Source: Escherichia coli (GTDB lineage Bacteria > Pseudomonadota > Gammaproteobacteria > Enterobacterales > Enterobacteriaceae). From it: a stretch of 64,000 nucleotides of DNA. Each line of letters starts with the position of its first letter. Position 1 is the first letter of the stretch. Made by a program: the position numbers. The stretch lies in the NCBI RefSeq assembly GCF_017348835.2, contig NZ_CP071375.1. The stretch is one strand, 5' to 3'. Positions 33,001 through 36,000 of this stretch are shown piece by piece.

Positions 33001-36000
33001 CTTTCCACATCACAATTAAAATTGTCAGGGACTGCCTGTCATCATATTACTGAAACACCTGCAAGCTTTAAAAGTGAAATTACGTCCCGGCAACTGGAAG
33101 ATGCACGGGAAAGTGGTTGTCTGCATATAAAAAATTGTGACATGGAGTTCTTGCCTCATTACCGGAAGAAATCACAGCGATAACAATAGAGAACTGTAAT
33201 AAGCTGACCGGTCTTACAGGGCTACCGGTCAATATAAAAAGCCTGTCCGTTATTAATTGTGAGAATCTGAAAGTCAGTGAACTGCCGCCGACACAGGGCA
33301 GCAGTGCTGCCGAATCTGTTTTATCCTCATCGTTGTCAAAGATAATTCCCGATTCGCAGTCGATATTGTCCTGCAGCCACGCAATCAGAATATCCAGTGC
33401 GGTTTCCGTGGTTAATGATTTCATGTTGTTCCTGGTTACCAGTCGAAAGTGGGTAAACCCGGCAGGCATTCAGCGCTGGCATCCAGATGAATGAGACTGA
33501 CGCCATAACGTCGGATGAGTGTGACAACCAGACGGCGGAACGTTTTTGACAGGCCCTGGCGCTTAAGCCGCAGAACCGGGTATCGGCTTTGCAGGTCAGC
33601 CCTTTTGCATACAGCGTGACGGTATGCTGATGGCGGGGATTCAGTTCACCGCTGGTGAGCATGAGTTCCAGTTGTTTCATCAGCAGCGGAAAGGCCTGGT
33701 CCAGGTGGTACGCATCTGCATCGCTGAACAGGCCTCTAATACCGGCGCGGTCGGCAAGGTAATGCAACCGGTTACCCTCCTGCACCAGACGTGCCCCGAA
33801 ACAGGGCGTCACGGTGCAGGGCAGCCCCCACCAGGGGCGGTCGTGATTGTCGTCGGGAAGTGTTGTCCCGGGGAGTGTGTCTGACACGATAAAATCCTTA
33901 CAGAAAATCGGCTAAGAATGGTCCGGTAGTGGCGATAATTCTGCTCATCAGAATTCCCACTCAGTTCAGGGTGACGCTCATCAGCCGGACATACGGACCA
34001 AAACTGTCCTTACGGCGTTCTGCAAACACGGCCAGCACACCGGGAATATCCTGCACTTCACGACCGGTATACGCTTCAGCACTGCCGTGCCAGCGGTATT
34101 TGCCGGTACAGAACGGAAAAAGACGGGATGCCGGATGCTGACGGTGAATACGCATGGCTTCGCCACGGGTGATGATTTTCATAGTGGGATACCTCTGAAG
34201 ACAGAAGATAAAAGTGAAAACAGGTGTGATGTGGTTGTAACGGTGACGGGTTAAAGCAGACCGTGTTCCGCAAAGGAGAAAACCTGGCTGCCACCGACTA
34301 TCAGATGGTCCGGCACCCGGATATCCACCAGACCCAGTGCCTGTACCAGACGTTCCGTAATAAGCTGGTCTGCCTTACCGGCAGGTACAAAACAGAGTTA
34401 TCGGGCACAGCGATACGTCCCGGGCGTAAACGCTCTCACCCTTCATCAGGCAGAGAAGTATCAGTCCGTTGTGTGCAATTCCGTTCTGCATGATGAAGAG
34501 ATTCAGCTGCCTTTTCGCAGGCCATTAACCACTATAAACGATCGATGCCAGCGATCAATACCTGTTTTATCGATCGTTTTATTCTATTAATAACAAGGCA
34601 GCCACGCAAGAGAAATAGGAGGAGTATGAGGAGTTTGTGTCATGTTTTCAGTTTGTTAACGTAATGTAATCAGGCATTTCCCCTGGCAGAGTGTTCAGAA
34701 GAAAATCCAGTTCCATACCGCGCGGGCAACAGAGACCACCGAGTCACGGACGGCCCGCAGAACCGTGCGTGCAACAGAGGCAATACAGACGCTCTCCGCC
34801 GTGTCAAATATCCGGTCCACCGCACCGGTAAACTGTTCACGGGCCTGCGAGCGGACAGACTCCGTGCGCAGCTCGTCCTGCAGTCGGGTCATCAGGGGGC
34901 TGGCGGCATGGTCGGGAAGTGCTGTCATGAGCGCACTGACCAGCGTATCCAGTTCCCAGCCGGTGCGGGCCGATACGGCCACAACCGGATGTACGGGCCG
35001 GAACAGCCGGAATACCGCATCTGTTTTCTCACGAATGTTCTGTTCCTGTGCGGGAGAAGGCTGAATACCTGCCATATCCCATTCATGGCAGGGTTCCGTT
35101 TTGTCGGCCTGCGTCACCACAAACAGCACCTGCTGATGTCCGCACTGCAGGATCTGTCGCCAGAAATACTCATCCACAGACAAGGCACGGTCATCGGCTT
35201 TAATCAGCCACAGTACCAGGTCCAGTTCAGGCAGAATGTCACGGTACAGGGCTTCATACTCTGCATCCCTGTCCCGGCTCTCGCCCACCCCGGGCAGGTC
35301 AGTGATAACCATGCTGTGACCGTGGCCACTCAGACGGAAGCGCCGTACTTCCTGGGTGCCGGCGTGAACATCACTGACCGGGGTGACCTCCCCCTGAAAC
35401 AGTGCATTACAGAGTGAGGATTTACCGGCCCCGCTTTTACCCATAATGCCAATCACGGGTTCGTGACTGGTGAGTTTACGCAGATGTTCCAGGATGTGAC
35501 GGGAAAGTGAGTAAGGCAGGGAGGAAAGCGGTTTTTCAATTGCCTCAATGGCATCAGACGGATTCATACATGTATTCCCGGTGAAAAAAGACAAAACCCC
35601 GCGCACCGGAAAGGTGGCGGGGGATTCACGGCGATAATATCTGTCTGAAATTGTTTTGAATCGATGGGATTGTTGCGTATTAACATGAAGGAGATCAGGA
35701 CTTATCCGTTACTGGGTGATCTCCTTCCATGAAAATACGCGGTTATTGTTAAACAGCAGGCTGATTACTCCGTAAAGGAGAAAAATATTCATCTTGCAGC
35801 CTGATTATCAGGTGTGTTTATGTTTACTGAGGTGAGTATTTTTCAGTATATTGTCGGGGCAGTCAGTGGGAGATATTAAATTTACGTTTAGAGTTATCTT
35901 GCTTCTGCTGTGTATTTTTATAAGAGTGCGCACGTAATGATATCTGTTGATACCATGTTGTTAAGTGTTTCCCTTCCGGGTCATGCGTACTTGCAAAATG

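Follow-up and report, generated by a model that had tools for sequence, protein, structure and literature searches.

The window analyzed here is a 64,000-nucleotide (nt) stretch of Escherichia coli DNA (contig NZ_CP071375.1, assembly GCF_017348835.2), and our subject is the remnant within it of a toxin-antitoxin module of the CbtA/CbeA type, the type IV system known from the CP4-44 element of E. coli K-12. A preliminary description of the sequence had placed a CP4-44-type string of genes at 33290-34400, and this was borne out: pieces of radC, DUF987, cbeA (yeeU), DUF5983 and DUF957 follow one another there, every one of them on the minus strand, and the toxin gene cbtA is missing. Over positions 33000-34700 (1,701 bp compared) the chromosome of PE164, a pig E. 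coli from China, is 100% identical to the window, and that of F2_81, a pig E. coli from Australia, is 99.9% identical. In the PE164 record, the NCBI Prokaryotic Genome Annotation Pipeline (PGAP) already marks radC, cbeA, DUF5983 and DUF957 as four consecutive incomplete pseudogenes. The feature is real but ordinary, and a RefSeq pseudogene annotation of it already exists. The same scar is found a second time on the other side of the locus of enterocyte effacement (LEE).

Taken along the minus strand, the first piece is the C-terminal stub of a yeeS-like radC/JAB pseudogene at 34251-34388, recognized by tblastn, NCBIfam, the junction sequence and the PGAP label “missing N-terminus.” True homology begins at 34381, at about codon 116 of the intact 158-residue JAB/RadC protein, so that about 43 codons are left. 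The tblastn match covers residues 114-158 of that protein, and the NCBIfam RadC profile is matched only at positions 172-211 of 212, scoring 42 bits where the cut-off is 180. The HNHPSG metal-binding motif, encoded upstream of the breakpoint, is gone, and with it the full RadC/JAB domain. The stub had been described before as carrying an in-frame stop; the stub itself stands, but the stop is not part of radC, being located beyond the breakpoint in unrelated upstream DNA. The next gene, the yeeT-like DUF987 (33961-34182), was correctly called intact: it is full length at 73 codons, its DUF987 family membership is clear, all 73 of 73 residues are identical by tblastn to the copy in strain C7, and PGAP lists it as WP_000692345.1. 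Then comes cbeA at 33579-33887, of which only codons 1-103 of 122 are present, as judged by a tblastn match confined to residues 1-103, by Pfam PF06154 and by the PGAP label “missing C-terminus.” The contention that this gene is intact over its recognized length therefore fails, since the Pfam CbeA_antitoxin model is matched at positions 1-86 of 101 (residues 18-103 of the open reading frame [ORF], E = 6e-43) and the whole domain is not there.

The 2 remaining pieces were both misread at first. The DUF5983 fragment at 33436-33582 (tblastn; PGAP “missing N-terminus”) consists of the C-terminal 48 codons and the stop, 100% identical to residues 115-162 of the DUF5983 protein of an O103:H2 strain and far from the full length of about 162 residues. 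It includes YGVSLIHLDASAE, which had been offered as a possible remnant of a toxin N-terminus; at 100% tblastn identity to the DUF5983 C-terminus, that origin is ruled out for the whole interval between cbeA and the next fragment, previously estimated at about 150 nt and measured here at 154 nt. That next fragment, which begins MKSLTTE and had been named yeeW-like, represents the first 45 codons, at the N-terminal end, of a DUF957 gene (33290-33424; tblastn to DUF957 proteins; PGAP “missing C-terminus”), with homology stopping at 33294, short of a full-length gene of 58-65 codons; K-12 YeeW is itself an N-terminal fragment of DUF5983. The NCBIfam scan returned no family for the cbeA, DUF987, DUF5983 or DUF957 pieces, and the assignments of cbeA, DUF5983 and DUF957 were made with Pfam, tblastn against annotated homologues and PGAP, and that of DUF987 with tblastn and PGAP.

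The absence of the toxin is complete. With 3 CbtA queries, tblastn at E ≤ 1e-3 found no CbtA-family sequence in any frame of the 64 kb, and hence no full-length toxin ORF, so the claim that the toxin is missing holds. A type IV pair, in which cbtA adjoins the antitoxin gene on its downstream side, is not present, the whole cbtA interval lying inside a deletion of 867 bp. The breakpoints were obtained by alignment with the undeleted modules of O157:H16 98-3133, C7, FORC 064, the O103:H2 strain, VE-V10-F and K-12, and they are constant: homology ends at 33578 on the cbeA side and restarts at 33583 in DUF5983. At the junction (33578-33583) there is a single copy of ATACCC on the minus strand. The undeleted relatives have ATACCC twice, once at each site, with a spacing of 867 bp or, in another allele, of 868-869 bp. 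Lost with the deletion were the last 19 codons of cbeA (104-122), the spacer, the entire cbtA and the first 113 codons of DUF5983, or 70% of DUF5983, and cbeA codon 103 was joined to DUF5983 codon 114 out of frame. The toxin had been read as lost selectively and the antitoxin as kept, but a single event struck the antitoxin end, the toxin and DUF5983 together.

Because the cbeA and DUF5983 frames differ at the repeat, the cbeA frame runs on for 80 junk codons (33336-33578, with the stop at 33336; taken from the ORF list and frame translations) to give an ORF of 183 amino acids (aa). The frame had been called aberrant, and it does depart from the family after GLTCKADT; what follows is an out-of-frame reading of the DUF5983 and DUF957 fragments. 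A native, longer variant of the antitoxin can be set aside on the same grounds, and also by rarity: the exact 183-aa ORF is found in only 2 contigs among about 15 billion proteins, and the junction in 2 of 5,426 complete E. coli genomes, those of PE164 and F2_81.

Up to the junction the antitoxin is ordinary, its residues 1-103 corresponding to K-12 YeeU (PDB 2H28), as shown with a near-identical relative CbeA as the query. The part that was lost is another matter. Alignment of 24 diverse CbeA-family sequences gave 11 positions with at least 90% conservation; 5 of these 11 (G108, Y109, Y111, Y115 and P116) lie in the deleted tail, which includes the conserved GYVYxAIYP motif. In an AlphaFold2 model of intact CbeA (mean predicted local distance difference test score, 85.9), with 5 strands and 1 helix, the last strand spans residues 109-116 and so falls in the deleted part; neither motif nor final strand is left in the window. 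All 4 of 4 solved CbeA-family structures extend to residue 118 or further in the numbering of the query. When the 183-aa fusion was aligned with the family, MAFFT pushed the C-terminal motif onto the junk tail. Conservation and predicted structure thus suggest that the truncated cbeA has lost the antitoxin activity of its family, which neutralizes CbtA and bundles MreB/FtsZ, and is a pseudogene, and at most the locus would express DUF987 and a misfolded CbeA fusion protein. Lacking a toxin and a complete antitoxin domain, it does not have the features that define a working pair, and most likely no longer acts as a toxin-antitoxin system. A search of representative proteins turned up many other CbeA ORFs cut or fused at differing points, which looks like random decay.

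From this perspective, one could still ask whether the truncated CbeA fusion is a working orphan antitoxin, acting in trans against CbtA-family toxins encoded elsewhere or arriving from outside and kept for that purpose, that is, in anti-addiction. Several things can be said for it: the first 103 residues match K-12 CbeA, the 183-aa ORF is open and, as set out below, is found in 2 identical copies, and PE164 has at least 1 further related module (3 matching places in the record, the third of them away from the LEE flanks). The region of PE164 guessed to hold this third module proved to be a prophage beside potAB, gene order in PE164 not being collinear with that in K-12. There is also precedent in the literature. 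Cross-neutralization has been described among the K-12 CbeA/CbtA paralogues (PMC5371832), with YfjZ acting against YkfI, and YagB of K-12 CP4-6 has been proposed as an orphan (PMC5371832); like the window gene, it is a CbeA-family gene with no CbtA-family gene beside it. The anti-addiction idea and how abundant orphan antitoxins are in E. coli have been discussed (PMC10790755), and an F-type secretion system can reportedly transfer CbeA, YagB and YfjZ (PMC11288057). However, YagB, at 116 aa (PMC11288057), stands alone as an ORF and has about the length usual in the family, whereas the window gene is a truncated out-of-frame fusion annotated as a pseudogene, and none of this literature gives reason to think that the truncated cbeA is active. 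Against a working antitoxin stand the 19 lost residues, which took with them a predicted beta-strand and 5 of the 11 positions that are most conserved, and the 80-residue tail of out-of-frame junk. The restriction of the junction to 2 of 5,426 genomes gives no sign of spread or selection, the 2 copies are accounted for by gene conversion, and the ORF takes its place among the variously truncated and fused CbeA ORFs that look like random decay. We consider a retained antitoxin function very unlikely, and for the anti-addiction role suggested in the preliminary description there is no evidence here.

Comparison with known modules shows how far the decay has gone, and where it may have begun. The yeeS-yeeT-cbeA(yeeU)-cbtA(yeeV)-yeeW cluster of K-12 CP4-44 has the same families in the same order as the window and 96.9% DNA identity to it between the 3′ end of radC and codon 103 of cbeA. 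In K-12, however, cbeA and cbtA are full length, whereas the window lacks cbeA codons 104-122 and cbtA; K-12 yeeW is the N-terminus of DUF5983 and the window retains the C-terminus; and of radC the window has only the stub. Closer comparisons are offered by the LEE-proximal modules of O157:H16 98-3133, C7 and FORC 064, which occupy the same island position beside espF and are 99.9-100% identical to the window in the DNA of DUF987 and cbeA codons 1-103. In these modules, as in the CP4-44 of O157:H7, the toxin is nonfunctional, just as it is absent from the window; the difference is that they combine a 122-aa antitoxin with a frameshifted cbtA, whereas in the window the dead toxin and the antitoxin end are physically gone. 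In 98-3133 and C7, the 2 closest relatives examined, the lesion in cbtA is a 1-bp deletion in codon 74 (CGT to C-T), with cbeA full length. An 81-bp query across this frameshift was taken from a relative's cbtA (L002 7373-7453; the window has no counterpart), and the exact allele was found in at least 1,487 of 20,395 records (5,426 complete genomes). Among these is the canonical CP4-44 of O157:H7 PV15-279, where PGAP calls cbeA intact and cbtA “frameshifted.” The dead toxin with a retained antitoxin that the preliminary description pictured is thus real and widespread, only one step earlier than the state of the window.

A variation on this theme is found in C7, whose LEE-distal module (L007 3281-3607) has a CbtA-family gene of 108 aa. 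An IS3 element sits directly upstream, where its antitoxin would be, and no antitoxin gene adjoins it; the length of 108 aa is due to a premature stop at codon 109 (TAC to TAA). In C7, with an intact cbeA and a frameshifted cbtA in the proximal module, it looks as if toxin and antitoxin have been split across the LEE. At the radC end, the 98-3133 group has the same left radC junction as the window plus an extra loss of 75 bp of radC (34301-34375), a small, nested second deletion.

Unexpectedly, the junction is present a second time. By blastn, the 1,088-bp minus-strand block at 33294-34381, made up of the radC stub, DUF987 and truncated cbeA joined to the DUF5983 and DUF957 fragments, has a counterpart just outside the window in PE164 (NZ_CP114128.1, 4518422-4519509), in direct orientation and with 1 mismatch. 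The 2 copies are 39,353 bp apart, on opposite sides of the LEE, and the second has the same junction and the identical 183-aa ORF. The same two-copy arrangement is present in F2_81. The most trivial explanation would be a collapsed repeat or false deletion introduced in assembly or sequencing; repeats misassemble easily, and this locus is repeated in the genome. It is nonetheless a negligible prospect, since PE164 and F2_81 were sequenced independently and agree in showing the junction at both copies, whose flanks are unique to each. Given that an identical deletion of 867 bp is unlikely to have arisen twice, one copy was templated from the other, and sequence has thus passed between the 2 repeat copies, as their shared junction shows.

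The mosaic structure of the copies bears on the direction of this exchange. In the window copy, the left 804 bp are 99.9-100% identical to the LEE-proximal allele of the relatives, while the right-hand part, 290 bp beyond the junction, agrees with the LEE-distal/O103:H2 allele at 99.7-100% and with the proximal one at only about 91-92%; mismatches to the proximal allele are found only within 33562-33301, and identity is 100% again beyond. The PE164 distal copy, for its part, corresponds to the distal module of the FORC 064 type (IS remnants, yeeU, 108-aa cbtA, DUF5983, DUF957 and DUF4942, in that order) apart from a replaced segment, in which 1,879 bp are exchanged for 87 bp plus a proximal-type patch of 965 bp, with nonhomologous ends. 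The patch spans radC codon 62 to cbeA codon 103, and the radC stub of the distal copy has 96 codons, compared with 43 in the window copy. A single crossover between proximal and distal modules is ruled out as the origin of the junction, as the LEE would have been deleted by it.

Where the deletion arose can be argued both ways. Slippage between the ATACCC repeats in the window (LEE-proximal) copy, with later copying of the junction to the distal repeat, has in its favor that the proximal-type module of the relatives has both repeats at the right spacing and that the native proximal allele is what lies left of the junction. But the sequence right of the junction (290 bp) is distal in type, the window copy, with 43 codons of radC, could not have supplied the 96-codon stub of the distal copy, and the left radC junction of the window is common to relatives in which the 867-bp deletion is not found. 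A proximal birthplace therefore seems unlikely, if not as remote as either an active antitoxin or an artefact.

The account we favor, and hold with considerable confidence, is that the locus is a nonfunctional, decaying CP4-44-type remnant, produced by deletion followed by gene conversion between the repeats that flank the LEE. The toxin gene here would probably have been dead already, through the 1-bp deletion in codon 74; with the toxin dead, the antitoxin would be freed from selection and could be clipped. The microhomology junction would then have arisen once, by illegitimate recombination or replication slippage and, most parsimoniously, in the LEE-distal copy, and gene conversion would have carried it into the window copy along with about 290 bp of DUF5983/DUF957 sequence of the distal type. 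Four points weigh against this account. The direction of conversion and the birthplace of the junction come from parsimony applied to a handful of genomes, and the loss of function of CbeA(1-103) is argued from conservation and predicted structure. Among the modules compared, no undeleted one with the exact pair of left and right alleles was found, and the state before the deletion could have held a distal-type cbtA of 108 aa, not the frameshifted gene. Finally, in the window copy the distal-type tract stops no more than 7 bp short of where homology ends, an unusual outcome for simple gene conversion.

If decay did proceed in this way, the locus offers a clean example of its order, with a point frameshift in the toxin first and a microhomology deletion clipping the unconstrained antitoxin afterwards. 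Taken alone, it is a textbook case of end-stage toxin-antitoxin decay in a mosaic pathogenicity island and matters little; the only slightly unusual things are that the junction is found twice, once to each side of the LEE, and that the frameshifted cbtA allele is very frequent. A more practical lesson is that many decayed pairs will be swept into automated tallies of E. coli “orphan antitoxins,” the combination of an intact cbeA with a frameshifted cbtA being very common. The exchange of sequence between CP4-type modules flanking the LEE also bears on LEE stability and mosaic evolution. A direct repeat of 1,088 bp that brackets a 39-kb LEE segment could mediate its RecA-dependent loss or duplication. 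That the 2 183-aa ORFs are expressed and neutralize CbtA-family toxins in trans, or that the 1,088-bp repeats, 99.9% identical, do recombine to lose or duplicate the 39-kb LEE segment (of which the proposed gene conversion would then be a trace), or both, is quite improbable in our estimation.

The surroundings are those of a LEE island. The module, in the full order radC-DUF987-cbeA-cbtA-DUF5983-DUF957, is part of the P4-like backbone of the pheU-LEE island. In the PE164 annotation the island sits at the tRNA-Phe gene pheU, with dicD on one side and cadC on the other, and the order of features along the minus strand is integrase, IS3/ISEc8, a YeeP-like GTPase, the radC-to-DUF957 remnant genes, and then espF and the remainder of the LEE. 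Rfam detected no RNA family in 31500-37500 at E ≤ 0.1, and promoter and terminator scans gave matches no better than chance level and were not used as evidence.

On the LEE side, a fragment of an EspK/GogB-family type III effector lies on the plus strand at 32998-33296, a frameshifted N-terminus of about 100 of 454 residues that has two matches to the 454-position profile NCBIfam NF011916, at 1-56 (E = 5e-34) and 52-100 (E = 5e-26). It converges on the DUF957 fragment and ends exactly where that fragment ends. Between the EspK/GogB fragment and espF, at 32989-32991, the window lacks a segment of about 1.6 kb found in O157:H16 98-3133 and C7 (L002 8508-10129), which encodes a DUF1076 protein and an effector of the WxxxE family. 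The espF gene itself (31974-32596, plus strand) has one G fewer at about 32051 than the intact 206-codon espF of 98-3133, which splits it into ORFs of 39 and 175 aa and is flagged by PGAP as a frameshift; this could be a true loss of a LEE effector or a sequencing error. On the other side, upstream of the remnant, the neighboring gene of the island backbone encodes a YeeP-like GTPase (34695-35567, minus strand; WP_024237532.1 by PGAP in the PE164 record), which has NCBIfam small-GTPase matches and is apparently intact.

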